Source: Candidatus Saccharimonadia bacterium (GTDB lineage Bacteria > Patescibacteriota > Saccharimonadia > Saccharimonadales > UBA4665). From it: a DNA stretch of 64,000 nt. The stretch lies in the NCBI GenBank assembly GCA_035479335.1, contig DATIIU010000002.1, forward strand, positions 37,716-101,715. The letters are read 5' to 3'. The notes beneath the pieces were generated by a model that worked only from the letters and a program-made list of their open reading frames with translations, made no database searches and was not told where the DNA came from. Of this stretch, positions 17,121-37,655 are shown in pieces. Position numbers and translations under genes: made by a program. Each line of letters starts with the position of its first letter. Positions within the stretch are counted from its first letter, which is position 1.

Positions 17121-17289
17121 TTTCTCCCCAAAGAGTAGCAGAAATGCGCAATCTAGTATTTCCGAAGTCTCCGTTTTAGCTCAAAGGCTTCTTAGCGTGT
17201 TAATGTAACCTTTTCATGACAAGTTCACAATTCTTTGTAGCCGGTTCCAACGCTTATGGTAAAATATCAGAAAGAATAAGGGATATCAT

Positions 17290-20200
17290 ATGCCAGCGGC
17301 TCGCCTACCTGTTCCGGGTTCTGATGACAATGTATGGGGCGATTTACTCAACCAGTTCCTGCAGACCGAACACAACACTGATGGTACGCTCAAGATACGT
17401 ACTGATGGTACCTTCTACACTAAACCAAGTAGTGGGGTGCCTGCGACTGACCTTTCTGCCGCTGTCCAGGGCTCACTTAATAATGCCAATGCCGCTGCCC
17501 AAATAAGTGGTGATTTAGGTGGTACGAGTGCGACACCTCGCGTTGCTAAGTTGCAGAACGTAACGCTGAACGCAAGTACGCCAACCAATGGCCAGGTGTT
17601 AAACTTTAATGCTAGCGCTAATGCTTGGGTGCCCGGTACGGTCAGCTCGATGACTGTTAGCGATGCGACAACTACCACTAAGGGTATTGTTCAGCTTGCC
17701 GGAGATCTTGCGGGAGGTGGTGCTGGTGGGTCTTCGCTTGCTTCTAGTCCAGTCGTAGCCGCAGGTGTGATAACTGGCGGAGCTGGCGGCAAGATTGCAG
17801 CCGGAACGATTACTGATGCTAACATCGCAAGCTCAGCAGCTATTGCTAAGAGCAAGCTTGCTAATCTCGGTATTGTTGACAGTGATGTTGCGGCTATCTC
17901 TGAAAGTAAGATTACTAATCTGTCTACCGATCTGGCGGCGACCGAGAAGACTGCCAACAAAGGCGTGGCTAATGGCTATGCAGGTTTGGATGGTAGTAGT
18001 CTATTGCCAACCGCTAACCTTCCTGTTGTTCCTATCACAAAAATTCCAACGGGAACAACTGGTTCTACGGTTGTCATTGGGAATGACACTAGAGTAGTAG
18101 GGGCTGTGCAATCCTCAGTTGCAACAACCAAAGGAGATCTACTTGCTGCTACTGCGGCTAGTACTGTTGCAAGGCAAGGCATCGGGGCAGATGGACAAGT
18201 TTTAACCGCGGATTCTTCTCAGGGGACGGGGATGAAGTGGGGGAATCTGCCGAGTAACTTGCCACCAAGCGGTGCCGCAAGTGGTGATCTCACAGGAACA
18301 TACCCCGGCCCGGTGCTTGCAGCATCGGGTGTAGCCGCCAGTAGCTATGGGGATGCATCCCATGTCTCTCAAGTGACCTTTGATGTCAAAGGGCGCGCAA
18401 CAAGTGCAAGCAGTACTGCGATCCAGATTGCTGAATCACAAGTTACTAATCTTTCTACTGATCTTGCTAGCAAAGCACAGGCACTGACAACGGTAGCGGT
18501 TCAAACAGCTAGCCCATATAATGCATCGGTCGGACAGTTTATTCCATTAGACACAACCAATGGCAATATAACTGTTAACCTACCAAGTACACCTGCCGAC
18601 AAGTCGGTAGTAAGTATTAAGCTTATCGCGCAAGCATCCTCGAATACGGCAACGATTACTGCAGGCGGTTCTGATGTGTTCAATAAGGCCGGTGGTTCTA
18701 CGAGTCTGTCGCTTGGCTTAGTAAACCAAGCAGTAACTGCACAATACGCAAGTGCGTCGGGAATTTGGTATGTGCATGGTGATGATTTGCCGCTCTCAGA
18801 TCTTGATAGCCGGTATGTGCGACAGAATACCTTAGTGTATAACGTCAAAGACTACGGTGCGGTTGGTAATGGCACTACAGATGACACAACTGCGATTCAG
18901 AGTGCTCTAAACGCGGCACCAATTGGCGGAGTTGTGTACGTACCTACGGGAACATATGCCATCTCAGCGCCACTGGTCATCCCACCAATGATCACGCTAC
19001 AGGGTACTCACGGTAACCGTATCCAATATGCTACGGCAGTACAGAATACGACACTCATTAAGCCGCTCGCGAGTTTTTCGGGTATTGCTGCCCTGAGGCT
19101 ACTCGACAAGGAAGAAGGTGGCTATAGTGCTGACAATGGTGGCCAGCGTATTAACGATATTTCACTTGATGGTTCTGCGCTTGCAGGCGGCTCAAACATT
19201 AGTGGTCTGCGGGCAACAGGTATTGTCCGTGATGTAATGTTGCAGAGAGTGTGTATACAAAATTTTCCGAAAAATGGATTCTCGACCGCGTCGTATACTC
19301 GACTGGATTCATCTTCGGGTAATCCGTATTCATGGTATTGGTTTAGCTGTATTGCCAACGCCAATGCTAACATTGGATACTCCATTGCTGCCCTCACGGA
19401 CACAGCAGTTATTAACTGCGAAGCAATCGGCAACTTAGTATATGGTTTCTTTGTCTCAAGTATGGCTAACTGCGAAGTCACTAACTGTCGTGCCGAATGG
19501 AACGGCAACTATGGTTTCTATGTCACAGGTGGTACCGGGAATGGTGGTTGTACCTTTAACGGTATTAGCACTGACCGTAATGAAAAATCGGGTGTTTATA
19601 TTGATGCCACCGGTACAGCTCCGCTGCTCTTCAATGGTGTGCAGAATCGTCGCGATGGACGAAATGCTTCGCTCGGGGGCGGATCCTATGCAGGTTTTGA
19701 AGCTAACGGGGCGACTTGTCCAATTATTATTAATGGCATTACTTGCTACCCAGGTGTTAACGATGATGGGTCAGGAGTTAGCTCGCCTCAGTACGGTGCG
19801 AAGTTTACCAGCTGTACATTTGCACAGATTGATAACGCCTATCTACATGCGGCCACACAGGGCTTACGTAACAGCGGCAACAACACACAGCTTATCTTGG
19901 GTTCAACGATGACCTATGCAACAGGAGCTGCGAGTACACCAACACGGACATTTGGCGGCTATCAACTACTCAGGAAGTCAGCTGATACTGCTCGGACCTC
20001 AACGGCTAGCCCTACAGATGATCCTCACTTGACAACAACAGTTGAACCGAACGCTACGTATGAGGTTGAGATCTTCGCTCGTTACGATGGTGCAACCACC
20101 GGTGATTGGCAATTTGCTTTCGACGTTCCGGCAAGTGCAACCTTCCACTGGCAGGGCACGGGCCTTCAGTCTACCGCAACTGGCACGGTCGCCAGTGTCA

Positions 20201-20403
20201 AGATGAGCGCTGCTTCTGAAACAGGTGGTGATACATACGGTGCAGCGGGCGTTGGTACTAAGACTGGCGCAAATATTGCAGGGATTCTCATAACTAGTGC
20301 AACTGGTGGTACATTTGCGCTGAAATGGGCACAAGGTACCTCCGACCCAAGTGCAACTACGCTCTTTACGGATTCATATATGCGTCTCAGGCAAGTAGGT
20401 TAA
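17290..20403 (+). CDS. large tail-fibre/tailspike-like protein with right-handed beta-helix (pectate-lyase-superfamily) domain
   Basis: 1037 aa. The N-terminal third has phage tail-fibre-type motifs (GYAGLDGSSLLPTANLP; duplicated ES(K/Q)(I/V)TNLSTDLA). The motif YNVKDYGAVGNGTTDDTTAIQSALNAAP...VYVPTGTY starts at about nt 18838 and is typical of the Pectate_lyase_3/tailspike fold. Confidence 0.8.
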   Translation: MPAARLPVPGSDDNVWGDLLNQFLQTEHNTDGTLKIRTDGTFYTKPSSGVPATDLSAAVQGSLNNANAAAQISGDLGGTSATPRVAKLQNVTLNASTPTNGQVLNFNASANAWVPGTVSSMTVSDATTTTKGIVQLAGDLAGGGAGGSSLASSPVVAAGVITGGAGGKIAAGTITDANIASSAAIAKSKLANLGIVDSDVAAISESKITNLSTDLAATEKTANKGVANGYAGLDGSSLLPTANLPVVPITKIPTGTTGSTVVIGNDTRVVGAVQSSVATTKGDLLAATAASTVARQGIGADGQVLTADSSQGTGMKWGNLPSNLPPSGAASGDLTGTYPGPVLAASGVAASSYGDASHVSQVTFDVKGRATSASSTAIQIAESQVTNLSTDLASKAQALTTVAVQTASPYNASVGQFIPLDTTNGNITVNLPSTPADKSVVSIKLIAQASSNTATITAGGSDVFNKAGGSTSLSLGLVNQAVTAQYASASGIWYVHGDDLPLSDLDSRYVRQNTLVYNVKDYGAVGNGTTDDTTAIQSALNAAPIGGVVYVPTGTYAISAPLVIPPMITLQGTHGNRIQYATAVQNTTLIKPLASFSGIAALRLLDKEEGGYSADNGGQRINDISLDGSALAGGSNISGLRATGIVRDVMLQRVCIQNFPKNGFSTASYTRLDSSSGNPYSWYWFSCIANANANIGYSIAALTDTAVINCEAIGNLVYGFFVSSMANCEVTNCRAEWNGNYGFYVTGGTGNGGCTFNGISTDRNEKSGVYIDATGTAPLLFNGVQNRRDGRNASLGGGSYAGFEANGATCPIIINGITCYPGVNDDGSGVSSPQYGAKFTSCTFAQIDNAYLHAATQGLRNSGNNTQLILGSTMTYATGAASTPTRTFGGYQLLRKSADTARTSTASPTDDPHLTTTVEPNATYEVEIFARYDGATTGDWQFAFDVPASATFHWQGTGLQSTATGTVASVKMSAASETGGDTYGAAGVGTKTGANIAGILITSATGGTFALKWAQGTSDPSATTLFTDSYMRLRQVG

Positions 20404-20553
20404 TACCACTGACAACTAGAAAGTAGCGCACAGTACATCTGTTGTCGGGCTTTACTGGCTATTGTATAGTTATTGTTTTAATGGTACGGTAGCAACGTTA
20501 TTCACCTATACAGTGATAACAGGTCATTTGCAGTCGAGACAGGAAGGGATCCC

Positions 20554-22260
20554 GTGTCACCCCGCTTCAGGTACTTCCGCGATCCACCGGCGCAAGGTAA
20601 GAGATTGCCCACGCCGCCGACCAACTACGAGAGAAAGGTGTATGTACAACGGCGTCTATGGTGGCTGACGCCTCTGTCGATGGTGTCCTTTACGGGTATC
20701 ACCATCTCGCAGGTTCTGTTCGGGCTGCGTCATCCGGCGCTGTTCGTCTTCTTGCCCCTGACCGCCTTCACGGTCTTCTACTACATCATCAGCCTGATGG
20801 TGACAGTCGGGTCGAAGGACTTCGACTACGATCGTCATGTCGAGCTGGTGAGCGACTGGTGGGAGCGGGTGAAACTTGGTCATGGGATGACGGCGCCCAG
20901 CGTCGACATCCTTTTGCCGATCTGCGGCGAGCCGATCCAAGTGATCCTCAACACCTGGCGCTACGTCAAGGAGCTCACCTATCCCGGTGTCGTGAAGGTC
21001 TATGTCCTCAACGACGGCCCCGATGGCCAGGACGAGGCGTTCCTCAAGCAGGAGGCGGCAGATCTGGGCTTCGTCTACCTCCGTCGCCCGGCTCGGACCG
21101 AAGCGAACACCCTGAACTTCAGGGGTGCCGAGAAGAAGGCGGGCAACCTGCACCACGGTCTGACTTACAGCGATGAACACGACCCTGGTGAGCTCGTCGT
21201 CATCTTTGACGCGGACTTCGTGCCAGCGAACATGATGCTGATGCACATGGTGCCCTACTTCTGGCGCTACAAGGGCCGGGGACACGACAAGGGCCTGGGT
21301 CTCTTGCAAACACCGCAGTACTTCCGCACCTGGAGCTCGCACATGGGCTGGCTGGAGCGCGGTGCGGGTGCTGTGCAAGAGTGGTTCTACCGCATCTCGC
21401 AGACCAGTCGCGAGCGGTGGGACGCCTCGATCTGCGTGGGCACTTGTGCCATGTACAGTCGGAAGGCCTTGAAGGAAAACGGCTGGACGACACTGATCGA
21501 GCACTCCGAGGACGTGCACACCGGGTACGACCTGCGTCGACTCGAGTGGCAGCTGATGTACATCCCCGTCGCTCTGTCGACTGGGATCTGCCCGTCGGTG
21601 CGCTCCTCCTTCCTCGCACAGCAGTACCGTTGGTGCATGGGCTCAATGAGCCTGCTCACCAGCCGCAAGTTCTGGAGCCTCAAGATGCCAATCCGCGCTC
21701 GCGCGGGGTACCTGTCGGGCTTCAGCTACTACATCCACACCGCCATGTTGACGTTTGTGGCTCCGGCTATCCCGCTGGTGCTGCTCGTGTTCTACCCGGA
21801 GATGGTGTACGCCAAGAACTATCGGCTCATCACGCCGAGCTTGGTGTACACGCTCGTGGCGGTACCGCTCTGGCACCGTAGCAAGTTCGGCTTGTCTGCG
21901 TTCGCCGTAAAGATGGTGTACGGCTGGGCGCACGTGTTCGCACTGCTCGACAAGGTTCGCGGCCGCCAGAAGGGCTGGCAAGCGACCGGCAACGCTGGTT
22001 CTACCCGAGGGATGCTGGACAAGCATTTCCTCGTAGGTACGATCGGCTGGGGCTGTACAACGGCCCTGGCTTGGATCGGGCTCGCAGTGTGGCGTGCTAC
22101 TATCGCCCCTGGAGTCGGCTGGGTGAACTTCATGCCTATGCTGGCATCGGGCTTGGTCTACGCGGCGGTCGTCGGTAAGACGCTCACCAAGACTGAGAGG
22201 TCCGAAGATCCAGAGTCGGACGACCAACTGGTCATGGAGTTGAGTGACAGTGACCGCTAG
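20554..22260 (+). CDS. high-GC processive family-2 glycosyltransferase (cellulose-synthase-like BcsA/CesA type) (island B)
   Basis: 568 aa. GTG preceded by AGGAAGGG. Motifs VLNDG, VIFDADF (DxD), QTPQYF, HSEDVHTG (TED), QQYRWCMG (QxxRW). TM helices on both sides of the catalytic domain. Hand count for 21001-21060 is 39/60 GC. Confidence 0.88.
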   Translation: MSPRFRYFRDPPAQGKRLPTPPTNYERKVYVQRRLWWLTPLSMVSFTGITISQVLFGLRHPALFVFLPLTAFTVFYYIISLMVTVGSKDFDYDRHVELVSDWWERVKLGHGMTAPSVDILLPICGEPIQVILNTWRYVKELTYPGVVKVYVLNDGPDGQDEAFLKQEAADLGFVYLRRPARTEANTLNFRGAEKKAGNLHHGLTYSDEHDPGELVVIFDADFVPANMMLMHMVPYFWRYKGRGHDKGLGLLQTPQYFRTWSSHMGWLERGAGAVQEWFYRISQTSRERWDASICVGTCAMYSRKALKENGWTTLIEHSEDVHTGYDLRRLEWQLMYIPVALSTGICPSVRSSFLAQQYRWCMGSMSLLTSRKFWSLKMPIRARAGYLSGFSYYIHTAMLTFVAPAIPLVLLVFYPEMVYAKNYRLITPSLVYTLVAVPLWHRSKFGLSAFAVKMVYGWAHVFALLDKVRGRQKGWQATGNAGSTRGMLDKHFLVGTIGWGCTTALAWIGLAVWRATIAPGVGWVNFMPMLASGLVYAAVVGKTLTKTERSEDPESDDQLVMELSDSDR

Positions 22261-22287
22261 TTCCTGTCGCTAGTCGACAACGGAACT

Positions 22288-22323
22288 GAGGCGGGGGCGC
22301 AAACACCCACGCGCCCCTGCCTC
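22288..22323 (+). terminator. GC-rich hairpin 3' of the GT2 gene
   Basis: GAGGCGGGGGCGC-aaacacccac-GCGCCCCTGCCTC (13-bp stem, one G-T pair), no T-tail. Confidence 0.5.
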
Positions 22324-22420
22324 ACCCTAAGCGTTTATACGAGCTACGTGCTCATTCAAATGCTTAGGTTTTGCTTCCATGAATGTGTATTCATGCTGAT
22401 GAGTTCAAAAGAACGAAAAG

Positions 22421-22465
22421 CATCTCTAGGGTGTTCGATTGCCCACAACTCTATATGCTACTAAG
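22421..22465. repeat. degenerate copy of the 23051-23120 promoter/leader repeat
   Basis: CATCTCTAGGGTGTTCGATTGCCCACAACTCTATATGCTACTAAG aligns with CATCCTAGGGTGTGTTCGGGTCTCCGAAGAGATCTATATAGTATTAAA. Confidence 0.5.
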
Positions 22466-22473
22466 TTGTTGCC

Positions 22474-22515
22474 TCAACTAAATACTGCAGGATCGTTCCT
22501 GGAGTACTTAGTTGA
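22474..22515. terminator. 18-bp-stem hairpin beginning GCCTCAACTAAA (family-1 slot terminator)
   Basis: TCAACTAAATACTGCAGG-atcgtt-CCTGGAGTACTTAGTTGA, 16 of 18 positions paired. Its first 12 nt with the preceding GC are identical to the hairpin at 34559. Confidence 0.55.
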
Positions 22516-22543
22516 AGACAGATTGGATAGCAGTGACGCGCAT

Positions 22544-22603
22544 GGCGGTGGGTAGTGTCCGAAGACAACTGTAGACTGGGCTAATCCCAGGTTACCCACC
22601 GCC
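22544..22603 (-). terminator. GC-rich nested inverted repeat 3' of the cassette C ORF
   Basis: Outer perfect 11-bp stem GGCGGTGGGTA (22544-22554) / TACCCACCGCC (22593-22603). Inner hairpin CTGGG-ctaat-CCCAG. Confidence 0.45.
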
Positions 22604-22640
22604 CGCGCGACTACTGGTATCACGCTGCCCTCAGCTCGTA

Positions 22641-23045
22641 CTAGACGCTTGCTGACACGCCGTTCATCAGTTGCCGGAGGTTGTGCATGAGCGCGGCCAG
22701 GTCGACAGTGATGTCGCACGAGCTCTCTCCGGGCTGACGGAAGCGAGTCACCTCGATGTACATCTTGGCATCAGCGAGGGCATCCCCCGTGAAGCAGTCG
22801 ATGAGTGCGTCGATGGAGATCGGGGCATCGGTCTGGTCCGATGCCGTGATTGTGTACTGCCGGCTGCCTGGGGCCTGGTTCTCGCCAGTAGTGGTTGCTG
22901 AGGGGTGCTTCCCTTCCGTGAGTGTTGGGAGCATGCCCCAGACCGTGAGCGTCACCTCGTAGCCGGTGTCAGCCCATGAAGCCTGGAGATGCGCCTTACC
23001 CGTAGCCCGGCTGGACCTGCTGCGGTGTTGTTGAGAACGGAGCAT
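22641..23045 (-). CDS. high-GC hypothetical protein (cassette C cargo)
   Basis: 134-aa ORF with GC3-rich codons. The ATG is 7 nt downstream of the right inverted-repeat arm. No motif recognised. Confidence 0.5.
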   Translation of the reverse strand: MLRSQQHRSRSSRATGKAHLQASWADTGYEVTLTVWGMLPTLTEGKHPSATTTGENQAPGSRQYTITASDQTDAPISIDALIDCFTGDALADAKMYIEVTRFRQPGESSCDITVDLAALMHNLRQLMNGVSASV

Positions 23046-23050
23046 CGTGG

Positions 23051-23120
23051 TTCCAATCTGTTGTTAACACATCCTAGGGTGTGTTCGGGTCTCCGAAGAG
23101 ATCTATATAGTATTAAAACA
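23051..23120. repeat. promoter/leader repeat, full copy (upstream of cassette C cargo)
   Basis: The 40-nt core GTGTTCGGGTCTCCGAAGAGATCTATATAGTATTAAAACA (23081-23120) is 37/40 identical to 25094-25133. On the minus strand it reads TTAAGA-18-TATATA followed by a hairpin leader. Confidence 0.8.
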
Positions 23121-23201
23121 CTTTTTGTCTTAAATGACCACTGGCATGAGCCAGCATAATTTATTTACACAATAAAATAAAAGTGATACTTTAAAGTTAT
23201 C

Positions 23202-24503
23202 ATGGTGACCGAAGCGGCGCTCACACCTCAAAATATCCCTGAGTATGTCCGCGGTCAAATTCCACTCGTAGCTGAACTTGCTCGTCACTCATCCAACGGT
23301 GAAGCACTTGGAGTTTTGGCGTGTACAATTATTGCGATTGATGGAAATGTTGCTTCGGGTCGTGCCTTTGCAGAAGAGCAGATTGCATTAGGGCATACTG
23401 TTGCCAAACCTTTATGGCCAGTCGATGCAGAAGGCGTTGTAGCTGAAGGACGGGCAGAGATTATTAGTCGTGAGGATTTTCCAGCTTATGAACAGGCCGA
23501 TATTTGGAAGTGGCTTGGTTGGAAAGGTGATGAGGAAGCACGAGATAAAGCCTGGGAGCTACTTGATGATGCTGTTCTAGCCGTTAGGCGAAGCTATTCA
23601 GAGAAAGGTCTTTTTGATCAGATCACACAGGATGAAGCCGCACAGACTGCCGCAGTTGCATATTCGCTTGTTCGCGGGTATGACAACCGGCCAGAAAGCC
23701 TCCAGAGAGCTCGTGATATAGCTGCGCTTGCTGCAGAAGCTGGAAGTCCGCAGCATTTGGCGCTTTTATACGACCAAGGTGATGACGAAAGCTTTAACAG
23801 AGAGATTGAAATCTTTGATACCCAAATCCAGCAAGCTACTTCTGAAGCAGGAGAAGAGAAAATCCGCTTTGAACACAGCTACACACTATACGATTTAGCG
23901 CTTAAGGCTGTCGCCCGTGATAATTTTGATCAAGCTACACAAGCCATGGATCGCCTTACGGATGATAGCTTGAAGGTGAGCATTCACGCTGCGCTATTTG
24001 GCAAAGATCCAACTGGGCCACTGCCACCATTCATTGAGAATTTCTTAAGCCGTACAGATCTAAGAGGGGGATGGACACCGTCAGTAACGCGTGCACTAGC
24101 AATAGCCCAATATTCACCGGCAATTGAGCGCTTGAGAGTATCGACGGAAGGTAGGCGAGAAATGCAGCTGCATGCATTATTAGATGCCGGTGTTGAAGGT
24201 GCGCGCGAGCAATTGCTGGCATGTGTTGCTGATCCAGAAAAAGGGGCGGTCGGCCTATGTAGTGAGCTTGACGATCTTACGAAGCACGGCCTTAAGGAAG
24301 AGGCGCTGCAAATTGCTAAAGAGCGATACGCAGAGAAAGACGAAGCGAGCATTGCGTATTGGATTTGGATGCACGAGGCTACGCCCGACATTACTCTGTG
24401 GCCCCGTGCTTATGCGGGTGCGCACGAGCATCGAGGGATTAGGGCGGCATATGCACTGCATAAACTTGCGCGACTAGCAACTCAGGCAACAGCTGAAGCG
24501 TAG
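23202..24503 (+). CDS. hypothetical protein (helical, no recognised motif)
   Basis: 433-aa ORF with backbone composition. Confidence 0.6.
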   Translation: MVTEAALTPQNIPEYVRGQIPLVAELARHSSNGEALGVLACTIIAIDGNVASGRAFAEEQIALGHTVAKPLWPVDAEGVVAEGRAEIISREDFPAYEQADIWKWLGWKGDEEARDKAWELLDDAVLAVRRSYSEKGLFDQITQDEAAQTAAVAYSLVRGYDNRPESLQRARDIAALAAEAGSPQHLALLYDQGDDESFNREIEIFDTQIQQATSEAGEEKIRFEHSYTLYDLALKAVARDNFDQATQAMDRLTDDSLKVSIHAALFGKDPTGPLPPFIENFLSRTDLRGGWTPSVTRALAIAQYSPAIERLRVSTEGRREMQLHALLDAGVEGAREQLLACVADPEKGAVGLCSELDDLTKHGLKEEALQIAKERYAEKDEASIAYWIWMHEATPDITLWPRAYAGAHEHRGIRAAYALHKLARLATQATAEA

Positions 24504-24591
24504 AGGATTCTAGGACATACCATTAAACAATGATGGGTACGTGTAGTTACCTTATTTCTGGTATTCTGGAGTAAAGGGAGACTACGAACGA

Positions 24592-25050
24592 ATGATTAAA
24601 GTTGCAGTGCTGTGGATTTTAAATGAGCAAAATGAGACCTTGTTAGCTCAGCGAGCACTTAATAAATCGCAGGACCCAGGTGTATGGGGACCAGCCGTCA
24701 CTGGTAAGCTAGAATTGGGCGAGAGTTTTGATGAGGCGCTAGTACGTGAGGTAGAGGAAGAGCTTTCTTTGAAGCCTACGGACTATACACCCCGATTTTT
24801 GTTTGAAAGAGATTATAACCACCCAGATGGTGAGGTTCGTAAGTTTGGGACTTATGTAGCTAGGATACCCAAGGCCAAAACAGTTGATATCCAGATAGAC
24901 CCAAATGAAGTGGCGGGGATACAATGGTTTGGCGTTGACGAGCTTTTAGAAAAGATGGCATCAGTGCCAAATGAACTGGTGCCGTCGGCGAATTCGGTGT
25001 GGCCTGAGACCTTTAAGGCTATCTGGCCGAATATGATGGGTGGAGGCTGA
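24592..25050 (+). CDS. Nudix hydrolase
   Basis: Nudix box GKLELGESFDEALVREVEEELSL. Confidence 0.85.
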   Translation: MIKVAVLWILNEQNETLLAQRALNKSQDPGVWGPAVTGKLELGESFDEALVREVEEELSLKPTDYTPRFLFERDYNHPDGEVRKFGTYVARIPKAKTVDIQIDPNEVAGIQWFGVDELLEKMASVPNELVPSANSVWPETFKAIWPNMMGGG

Positions 25051-25081
25051 CCTATCTTATTTATGGATGCTAGCTAGTCTA

Positions 25082-25133
25082 TTCCAATACTTTGTGTTCG
25101 GGTCTCCAAGGAGATCTATATAGTCTTAAAACA
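25082..25133. repeat. solo copy of the promoter/leader repeat with no cargo ORF
   Basis: TTCCAATACTTTGTGTTCGGGTCTCCAAGGAGATCTATATAGTCTTAAAACA. It lacks the CTGT of the inverted-repeat arm and a 17-nt segment present in the 23051 copy. Confidence 0.8.
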
Positions 25134-25265
25134 TATTCTATTAAAGATTGGAAGATTGATCAATCTAACGAGATGCATAAGCTTCGGTATGACCCTCCTC
25201 TTTGCTCTCTTCGGTGCAGAAGCGCTTGCAAGAAGTAAACATAAGCGAGTACACTTAAGGGGAAA

Positions 25266-34713: not shown

Positions 34714-35235
34714 TCAGATGATCGCCGTCGCGGTGGCCTCGTCGGGAGTGGTCCCGGCCGTGCGCATCATGTCTGCTGCCATGAGGCTTCCCAGGGCGCG
34801 GACCGTCTTGAGGTTCACCCGGAGCGTTGTGGACTGGTCGGGGTCCTGGGCGGTGGCTTGCAGGGCACGGCGACGGTTCTTGTTGCCGGCGATGCGGCTC
34901 AGCACAGCCTCCATGGCGGCCCCGTTGACAGTCTCGGCGACGCTCAGCACGGCGTCGCAGTTTTGAACGGTCAGACGGTAGGGGCTGACCTCGGGGTTGT
35001 GCCTCTCGTTGTAGGCGTAGGCCTCGACCTCCGTGGGCTCGCCGAGCTGGTAGTTCACATGGGGGTGGTCCGTCGGCAGCTCACGCTCGGCGAGCAGTTC
35101 GTGGTTGACGAACGCGAAGTCTGTGGTCATCGTGCCATCGTCAGACGGTCGCTGGACGATCGTCATCTCCACCCTGGTGGGCAGCATGCACGTCACGGCG
35201 GAACGGCCGAATTGGATGATGTCCGCGAAAGCCAT
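34714..35235 (-). CDS. high-GC hypothetical protein (cassette D cargo)
   Basis: 173-aa ORF with GC3-rich codons. AGGAGG lies 7 nt upstream of the ATG. No motif recognised. Confidence 0.5.
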   Translation of the reverse strand: MAFADIIQFGRSAVTCMLPTRVEMTIVQRPSDDGTMTTDFAFVNHELLAERELPTDHPHVNYQLGEPTEVEAYAYNERHNPEVSPYRLTVQNCDAVLSVAETVNGAAMEAVLSRIAGNKNRRRALQATAQDPDQSTTLRVNLKTVRALGSLMAADMMRTAGTTPDEATATAII

Positions 35236-36683: not shown

Positions 36684-36834
36684 AGCGCCCCTAGGCCTTA
36701 TATGCCAGTCTGTTACGCTCATTCTCTTGCTTGTACTCTTATGTAATAAGACTATATAACTTTTAATTGTATTGTGAGACGCAATGAGATAAAGGATATT
36801 GCTTGATGGAATTGGTATAAATCTTTGAATCGTC

Positions 36835-36920: not shown

Positions 36921-37655
36921 TCAGACCTGCAGGTCGTTCTTCCCACCGATGTTCATGGACGTCACCTTCAGGTCGGGCAGCTGGTCAGTCACCATGCTGA
37001 GGAGGTTCTGGACCGTCGGGTCCGACAGCCAGACGCCGGAGGACACCTCGATCAGGTACGACGTGTCACCGGTGGTGTACACGAAGAGCAGGTCGAAGGC
37101 GGTCGGCTTGTTGTTGCGGTCGTTCCAGATGGTCTCGACCTGCTGGTCGAAGATCTTGCCGCTGGCGGCGTGGAACTTCCACGTGCTCGCGATGCCGTCC
37201 GGCCAGAGGCTGGCGACGACGGGGCCGCGGAGGTGGAACGTGAAGCCGTCCGAGATGGTCTGGCGCGAGCCGTAGCCCATGATGGTGAAGCTCGCCAGAG
37301 CGTCCGTGGAGATCCCTCCCGACGGGGTCGTGGTCACCATGGCGTACTGGCAGTTGTCCTCGTAGTCGCCGGTCTTGGTCGGGTCGTTGCCGGACGGGAG
37401 CAGATCGGCCATGTTGACGGCGAGGTCAGGCGCGATGTTGTTCACCGCTTTCACCGGCAGCAGCGCGCAGGTGTCGATCCTGTGGTCGTTGTTGTAGACG
37501 GACCTCTGGGTCGGCGCGGCGCTGGTGCTGGTCGCGGTCGGCGGGATGGAGGCCTGGCGCTGCTGCGGCTGGCTGGTCTGAACGGCGCCGAAGGCGGCCA
37601 GGCCACCAATGGCGAGCAGTGCGATGATGCTGAGGCGACGGCGGATGTTGCGCAT
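36921..37655 (-). CDS. high-GC secreted protein, possibly DUF3558-like (island E)
   Basis: 244 aa. Signal peptide MRNIRRRLSIIALLAIGGLAAFGA. IDTCALLPVKAVNNIA and a second conserved Cys resemble actinobacterial DUF3558 proteins (from memory). Hand count for 37381-37440 is 40/60 GC. Confidence 0.6.
   Translation of the reverse strand: MRNIRRRLSIIALLAIGGLAAFGAVQTSQPQQRQASIPPTATSTSAAPTQRSVYNNDHRIDTCALLPVKAVNNIAPDLAVNMADLLPSGNDPTKTGDYEDNCQYAMVTTTPSGGISTDALASFTIMGYGSRQTISDGFTFHLRGPVVASLWPDGIASTWKFHAASGKIFDQQVETIWNDRNNKPTAFDLLFVYTTGDTSYLIEVSSGVWLSDPTVQNLLSMVTDQLPDLKVTSMNIGGKNDLQV

Follow-up and report, generated by a model that had tools for sequence, protein, structure and literature searches.

The window analysed here is a stretch of 64,000 nucleotides from a Candidatus Saccharimonadia bacterium (assembly GCA_035479335.1, contig DATIIU010000002.1, positions 37,716 to 101,715 of the forward strand), whose genome comprises 1.15 Mb in 8 contigs with a GC content of 47-48%. 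It contains two closely similar short sequences, copies A and B, on the two sides of a block of 1946 bp (23136-25081, plus strand). The block carries its own predicted promoter (TTTACA-17-TACTTT) and two genes, ORF433 (433 aa, 23202-24503) and a Nudix gene (24592-25050). Copy A sits between a minus-strand gene for a protein of 134 amino acids (22641-23045) and the plus-strand ORF433. Copy B sits between the Nudix gene and the gene of pyruvate kinase (pyk). The 134-aa gene is a GC-rich orphan, the cargo of a unit termed cassette C, and is served by copy A.

The genes around the copies differ in how widely they are shared. ORF433 has no Pfam match, and none of the 13 other genomes of the genus contains it. 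Its sole homolog (45% identity) occupies a different place, adjoining tRNA-Glu in L017, a JGI contig, and has in common with ORF433 a proximal promoter-like box beginning TTTACACAA. For pyk, a (G)TACACT box is located about 12 nt before the start codon (window 25242-25265) and recurs in four of five same-genus species, being absent in L014. From its sequence, this GTACACT box is likely a -10 element with a very short leader. Beyond the box, the sequence ahead of pyk varies between four other species of the genus, and a conserved pyk regulatory element was rejected as the relatives share only the TACACT box.

A word-based search of 5.8 billion proteins returned no homolog of the 134-aa protein, although one with 39% identity occupies the same place in G207, the nearest of the same-genus genomes examined for this locus (identities of 91% for pyk and 96% for pgk). 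The two proteins share MLRS.., VTLT.W.M, EN.APG and I..LI.CF, and the inverted repeat around the gene is also conserved in G207. The gene is therefore real and evolves fast. The protein of another GC-rich unit, cassette D (34714-35235, minus strand), finds its nearest relatives, within the species-genome collection, in Streptomyces and Wenjunlia (30-39% identity over part of the protein, E ~1e-6 within the candidate set), which hints at an actinobacterial origin of that gene.

A candidate type III hammerhead ribozyme (22370-22424, plus strand) lies just after the GC-rich GT2 glycosyltransferase gene; it has the full core (CUGAUGAG..CGAAA) and scores 35.1 bits, under the Rfam cut-off of 48.5. 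A second genomic hammerhead (C5:230288-230342, minus strand) is identical to it at 46 of 51 positions, likewise follows a GC-rich gene and shows a compensatory change in stem II (GTTC/GAAC to GTCC/GGAC). The ortholog in G207 (L040 11166-11220, minus strand) scores 31.8 bits, and a decayed hammerhead-like stretch is seen in that genome about 150 nt before pyk. The Logan contigs of two runs both start at 22375, three bases before the predicted cleavage site 22377/22378; this may be coincidence.

The two copies and their module

The core of copy B (25093-25133) matches that of copy A (23080-23120) at 38 of 41 positions without a gap (about 93%). The original prediction had reported 37/40 for 25094-25133 and 23081-23120, which agrees with the present result except that its coordinates are shifted by one base. 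Allowing a single 2-nt gap lengthens the alignment to 55 columns, of which 47 are identical (85%); the longest identical run is 15 nt. Zero matches of this quality are expected in shuffled sequence. Two of the three core differences fall in the hairpin loop, as had been predicted, with CGAA in A and CAAG in B (GGTCTC-CGAA-GAGATC in A and GGTCTCC-AAG-GGAGATC in B). The third is an A to C change, GTATTAAAAC vs GTCTTAAAAC. The motif TTCCAAT, described beforehand as an edge that copy B had kept, is indeed present at 25082-25088 on the B side, and at 23051-23057 on the A side; copy A has 22 nt between motif and core, copy B 4 nt. Copy B is without some 18 nt of A, including CTGT and the 5' arm of a second hairpin. 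The loss of CTGT had been foreseen correctly, along with that of a segment put at 17 nt. Over both copies the window is matched at 100% identity by Logan contigs from SRR9179560 and SRR9179562; as these two independent contigs agree, an assembly artefact does not explain the arrangement of A and B.

Read on the minus strand, the copies are probably parts of a promoter with a 5' leader, as judged by the position and the order of the elements: an AT-rich box, hairpin 1, hairpin 2, CAACAGAT, a ribosome-binding site and ATG. We infer the promoter hexamers, the transcription start and the strand of this module from sequence. The same order is found at cassette D, whose box holds the near-consensus pair TTGTGA-17-TATAAT, and B and D align with 24 of 29 positions identical (p<0.002).

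The core of copy B, which scores 66.6 bits with covariance model R1, carries on the minus strand a putative AT-rich promoter box (TGTTTTAAGACTATATAG), hairpin 1 (GATCTCC-TTG-GAGACC) and CCGAACACA. It is limited on one side by 25082-25092, TTCCAAT plus ACTT (ATTGGAA on the minus strand), an apparent remnant of a ribosome-binding site with hairpin 2 deleted and no start codon. On the other side, alignment with G207 and a promoter scan place the putative distal promoter of the ancestral module at 25134-25174, a segment that exists only beside B. It includes AGATTGGAAG, with TTCCAA at the -35 position of the minus strand, and the scan returns a consensus-like pair, TTGATC-17-TAGAAT, pointing from B into the Nudix gene.

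The core of copy A, with its gene still attached, shows hairpin 1 with the loop cUUCGg on the minus strand. The leader that follows (23046-23079), found only at this copy, comprises the ribosome-binding arm TCCAATCTGT and hairpin 2 (AACACA/TGTGTT) and ends where the 134-aa gene begins with its start codon. On its distal side copy A has a short stretch that is still homologous to the module (23121-23135, ..TTTTGTCTTAAAT), at the end of which the homology stops. At this junction TGACCA (TGGTCA on the minus strand) occupies the -35 position, so that the 134-aa gene may have kept a usable promoter.

The stem of hairpin 1 is identical in A, B and G207, with the loops UUCG, CUUGG and CUAG, and hairpin 2 differs on both sides of its stem, AACACA/TGTGTT in A vs CGTGC/GCACG in G207. 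These patterns suggest a structured leader. The conservation of the 134-aa gene together with its leader in a second species, with hairpin 2 changed on both sides, supports the GC-rich cassettes as real, regulated genes. The folding energies of the leader are no better than those of shuffles, and hairpin 1 is weak on the minus strand (-2.4 to -5.1 kcal/mol). On the plus strand the core folds better than this hairpin, forming a helix of 12 bp, four of them G.U pairs (-8.6 and -9.9 kcal/mol, z -1.7 and -2.0). We give the plus-strand fold less weight because G207 keeps neither its outer helix (TGTGT/ATATA) nor the palindrome CTATATAG, having CACG and CTCTTTAG.

Each cassette holds TTCCAAT/ATTGGAA at three sites: one follows the gene, one falls at the ribosome-binding site and one lies upstream of the promoter. 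G207 has kept all three. The sites in the window are 25147-25153 and 25082-25088, and 22518-22527 and 23052-23061. The copy upstream of the promoter lies outside the mRNA, so pairing of the mRNA ends fails to account for it. This copy may instead represent a -35 region or a protein-binding site.

Pattern search, blastn-short and the covariance model agree that the genome holds exactly two copies of the repeat, A and B. The repeat was not found in 200 genomes of the same family, nor, by a 21-base pattern, in public metagenome and genome contig collections. A looser 19-base pattern gave five matches with unrelated flanks, which we read as chance. The wider AT-rich box TAAKACYATATAG is present three times in the genome, once at each copy and once ahead of the cassette D gene, with a near-match at 36735-36758, and does not occur in 13 other same-genus genomes. 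The palindrome CTATATAG has 21 sites against about 22 by a rough composition-based estimate, and the contexts of the other sites are unrelated. A generic promoter family, which the original prediction had named as the outcome that would speak against it, was therefore rejected: there are two copies, the palindrome is not enriched and the longer box is confined to A, B, D and 36747. The repeat is equally not a family of slots. The near-match at 36735-36758 (plus strand) is an AT-rich box, TATGTAATAAGACTATATA, identical to copy B at 17 of 19 positions. It has no ORF downstream and is directed towards the 3' end of a GC-rich minus-strand gene (36921-37655) and its terminator hairpin.

The third, degenerate copy claimed at 22421-22465 (plus strand) could not be established. 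It aligns at 34 of 48 positions with 3 gaps, at the edge of chance (p ~0.001 under lenient and ~0.05 under strict scoring), its score is equalled by one unrelated place in the window, and the resemblance is absent at the orthologous place in G207. Its assignment to a hammerhead module was rejected too, as the homology of the two hammerheads ends at 22421. Another module-like repeat, at 17147-17225, has p 0.03 and was set aside as noise.

One unsplit module in G207

Comparison with G207 provides the key to the relation between A and B. Covariance model R1 was built from A and B. In a search of 14 genomes of the genus its one additional homolog is that of G207 (33.4 bits, E 1e-4); a weak match in G187 (20 bits) falls in coding-like sequence and was read as chance. 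The G207 homolog is located directly upstream of the 134-aa gene homolog, in the same run of genes as here: tailspike-like (82% identical), GT2 glycosyltransferase (81%), hammerhead ribozyme and the 134-aa homolog. It forms a single module in the order TCTTCCAAT - TTAAAACAAAATATGTTATTAATACTAAAGA - GATCTCCTAGGAGACC - CGAACGTGCCTTTGTGCACG - ATAACAGATTGGAACCGCT - ATG. ORF433 is missing there, and no Nudix ortholog was found in G207, in which only distant Nudix paralogs are seen.

The two sides of this single module are divided between the copies of the window. From 22202 the window aligns continuously with the G207 cassette through copy A and ends at 23135, and the G207 leader, with its ribosome-binding arm and second hairpin, is matched only by the left flank of A. 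The right part of the G207 module, a putative distal promoter with ATTGGAAGA, continues only from copy B; the right flank of A has nothing comparable to it. Copy B and its right flank (25096-25155) align with the G207 module at 83.6% over 61 columns (E 3.7e-12), and the homology goes on through TTGGAAGA (8/8) and then ATCTAA.G.GAT to about 25174. As the left flank of A and the right flank of B are the two flanks of one G207 module, A and B are junction duplicates of one module, which is duplicated here over 65-85 nt (23051-23135 and 25082-25146).

The changes relative to G207 are unevenly distributed along the copies. In the core, A and B agree with each other against G207 at 6 sites and show 2 private changes; the next 15 nt beyond it have 8 private changes and none that are shared (Fisher one-sided p 0.0035). 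Shared changes in the core with none in the adjacent distal parts argue for recombination or conversion in the core. Judged by this tally, the core is either a crossover between diverged modules (Campbell-type, the block having brought its own module copy) or was homogenised later. A plain staggered-cut duplication followed by even decay does not fit such a mosaic.

The region has also been rearranged on a larger scale. A segment of about 6 kb (17233-23135), with the tailspike-like gene, GT2 gene, hammerhead and cassette C, is located in G207 between an ORF331 homolog and tRNA-Glu; here it lies 5.6 kb further on, after tRNA-Glu and a Fic gene. The different places indicate that the segment was translocated between the two species of the genus. 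The repeat at 17147-17225 mentioned above adjoins its left end, and its right end is the promoter-leader module.

Origin of copy B

A basis for the presence of a promoter-leader without a gene can now be proposed. Copy B is probably the orphaned distal part of the cassette C promoter-leader module, a junction repeat or scar. The ancestral module would have consisted, on the minus strand, of a distal promoter containing TTCCAA, the AT-rich box, hairpin 1, hairpin 2, CAACAGATTGGAACC and ATG. A rearrangement would have placed the 1946-bp block with ORF433 and the Nudix gene inside it, duplicating 65-85 nt, and the likeliest event would be insertion of the block through recombination within the conserved core. 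The leader and the gene would have stayed with copy A, where the junction supplied a new -35-like hexamer; copy B would have kept the original distal promoter and lost hairpin 2, the start codon and the gene. Copy B today has the ancestral distal promoter, a box with TAAGAC for TAATAC, hairpin 1 and the ATTGGAA remnant. From this remnant to the Nudix stop (25050) there are 33 nt, in which the minus strand offers neither a start codon nor an ORF. The original prediction had described copy B in just these terms, as having no ORF downstream and facing the 3' end of a Nudix gene, and the neighbour is confirmed as such (PF00293, E 1.9e-20). If the promoter of B still fires, its sole product would be a short transcript, antisense to the Nudix gene at its 3' end.

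We infer the direction of the event (insertion here, not loss in G207), the assignment of promoter and start, and any present activity. The polarity is argued from parsimony and one close relative, and had G207 instead lost the block, by a recombination event joining A to B, the outcome would likewise be one hybrid module. The scar reading also has to accommodate a duplication of 65-85 nt, far longer than ordinary target-site duplications, and a block without an integrase.

The identity of the core (93%, against about 50% in the adjacent sequence) may mean that the core is under selection and that B is functional. On this alternative, A and B would be a selected cis element: a plus-strand RNA hairpin, which could be a processing or 3'-end element flanking an ORF433-Nudix transcript, an operator, or the promoter of an anti-Nudix RNA. 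The 12-bp plus-strand helix with its four G.U pairs, the constant stem of hairpin 1 with its differing loops, and the consensus-like pair pointing from B into the Nudix gene are all in keeping with such a role. We nevertheless hold it to be unlikely, as the outer plus-strand helix and the CTATATAG palindrome are not kept in G207 and the folding energies fall inside the shuffle range. An Rfam 15 search at copy B returned just Afu_294 over 25095-25167, at noise level (17 bits, E 4.4), and the two copies, with their three differences, lend no support by covariation.

The reading put forward in the original prediction, that the copies are slots, survives in part. As was claimed, copy B is paralogous to the cassette C promoter-leader and lacks cargo; its promoter box, hairpin 1 and ribosome-binding remnant are arranged in the expected order. 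That it is an independent, pre-existing slot, from which cargo was deleted or at which it never arrived, is in our view quite improbable. Weaker paralogous boxes at cassette D and at 36735-36758, the latter also without cargo, and the variation upstream of pyk between species of the genus would suit a slot. Against this, the flanks of the single G207 module are those on the left of A and on the right of B, as expected of a split module, the 33 nt before the Nudix stop hold no trace of an ORF, and no solo copy was seen in any other genome searched. The simpler history of a split module, backed by this comparison, replaces the idea of pre-made empty slots awaiting cargo.

A more speculative proposal, to which we attach little credence, is that the module is a portable expression adaptor of these bacteria with small genomes, and its core a homology patch for recombinational swapping of gene blocks. 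If it were true, mosaic modules such as A, B, the box of cassette D and that at 36735-36758 would be expected, with occasional cargo-less copies left behind, and the locus would represent an undescribed, recombinase-independent form of cassette shuffling that wires foreign-looking GC-rich genes into expression.

It is very improbable that A and B are att-like sites of active recombination, in an integron-like or Xer-dependent exchange of cassettes. Such sites would account for direct repeats around a block that lacks an ortholog in the sister species, itself with a single site, for the mosaic pointing to a crossover in the core and for the translocation of the neighbouring 6-kb segment. Yet the one tyrosine recombinase of the genome (PF00589) is encoded on contig C1, outside the window, integron core sites were not seen on inspection, and A and B share an identical run of 15 nt at most; there is no third site, and no other genome searched has the repeat. 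Finally, a short protein-coding exon, suggested by same-phase frames open across both cores (22989-23159 and 25092-25238, the latter of 48 aa), is scarcely credible, since all three base differences alter the residue (R to Q, R to G, I to L), the frame ends are unrelated and the A frame starts within the antisense of the GC-rich gene.

Comparison with known systems

Putative mobile promoters have been defined by an identity of 80% or more across 50 nt or more, the adjacent genes not being paralogous (Matus-Garcia, Nijveen and van Passel 2012; PMC3575422). The A/B pair, identical at 47 of 55 columns including a 2-nt gap and at 38 of 41 in the core, reaches this identity, and the genes downstream on the plus strand, ORF433 and the pyruvate kinase gene, are not paralogs; on the minus strand there is a gene only at A. 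Measured from the 134-aa gene, copy A occupies -35 to -75, compared with -150 to -50 in that definition, and B is without a gene on this strand. On the plus strand the copies are at about -82 to -122 from ORF433 and at -133 to -173 from pyk, both of which have their own proximal boxes. The likeness to mobile promoters is one of similar non-coding stretches upstream of non-homologous genes with no known mobile element. The difference is that the origin is traceable here: one module was split by a block, and no promoter was newly recruited.

The attL and attR sites of Campbell-type integration resemble the locus in having direct repeats around a block, a relative with an unsplit site and signs of crossover in the core. 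As in an integrated island, A and B flank 23136-25081, and G207 has a single module with neither ORF433 nor a Nudix ortholog. The present repeats differ in being imperfect and in occupying a promoter-leader rather than a tRNA or dif site, with no integrase or excisionase; ORF433 and the Nudix gene are all that the block encodes, without a recombinase of its own. An integron is similarly not indicated, as the single PF00589 match of the genome gives no IntI in the window, the ends read TTCCAAT/ATTGGAA and not RYYYAAC/GTTRRRY as in attC, and cassette C, unlike the promoterless cassettes of integrons, has its own promoter-like box. REP, REPIN and MITE sequences are marked by many dispersed copies, and this repeat has two in the genome.

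Phage morons are comparable to cassette C, which is self-contained, with promoter, leader and terminator hairpin, and has a composition off that of the genome. They differ from the locus in that it contains a gene-less promoter-leader fragment and has no phage context.

Stem-loops at the 5' end stabilise some bacterial mRNAs, such as those of ompA in E. coli and aprE in B. subtilis. Hairpin 1 is alike in following directly on the predicted -10 box, where it would form the 5' end of the mRNA, and in its conserved stem. It is unlike them in being weak on the gene strand and in following a transcription start that is predicted.

Set against these systems, the A/B pair is a new example of promoter duplication with junction repeats, and not a new kind of system. 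These junction repeats mark a rearrangement hot spot upstream of the pyruvate kinase gene in a reduced genome.
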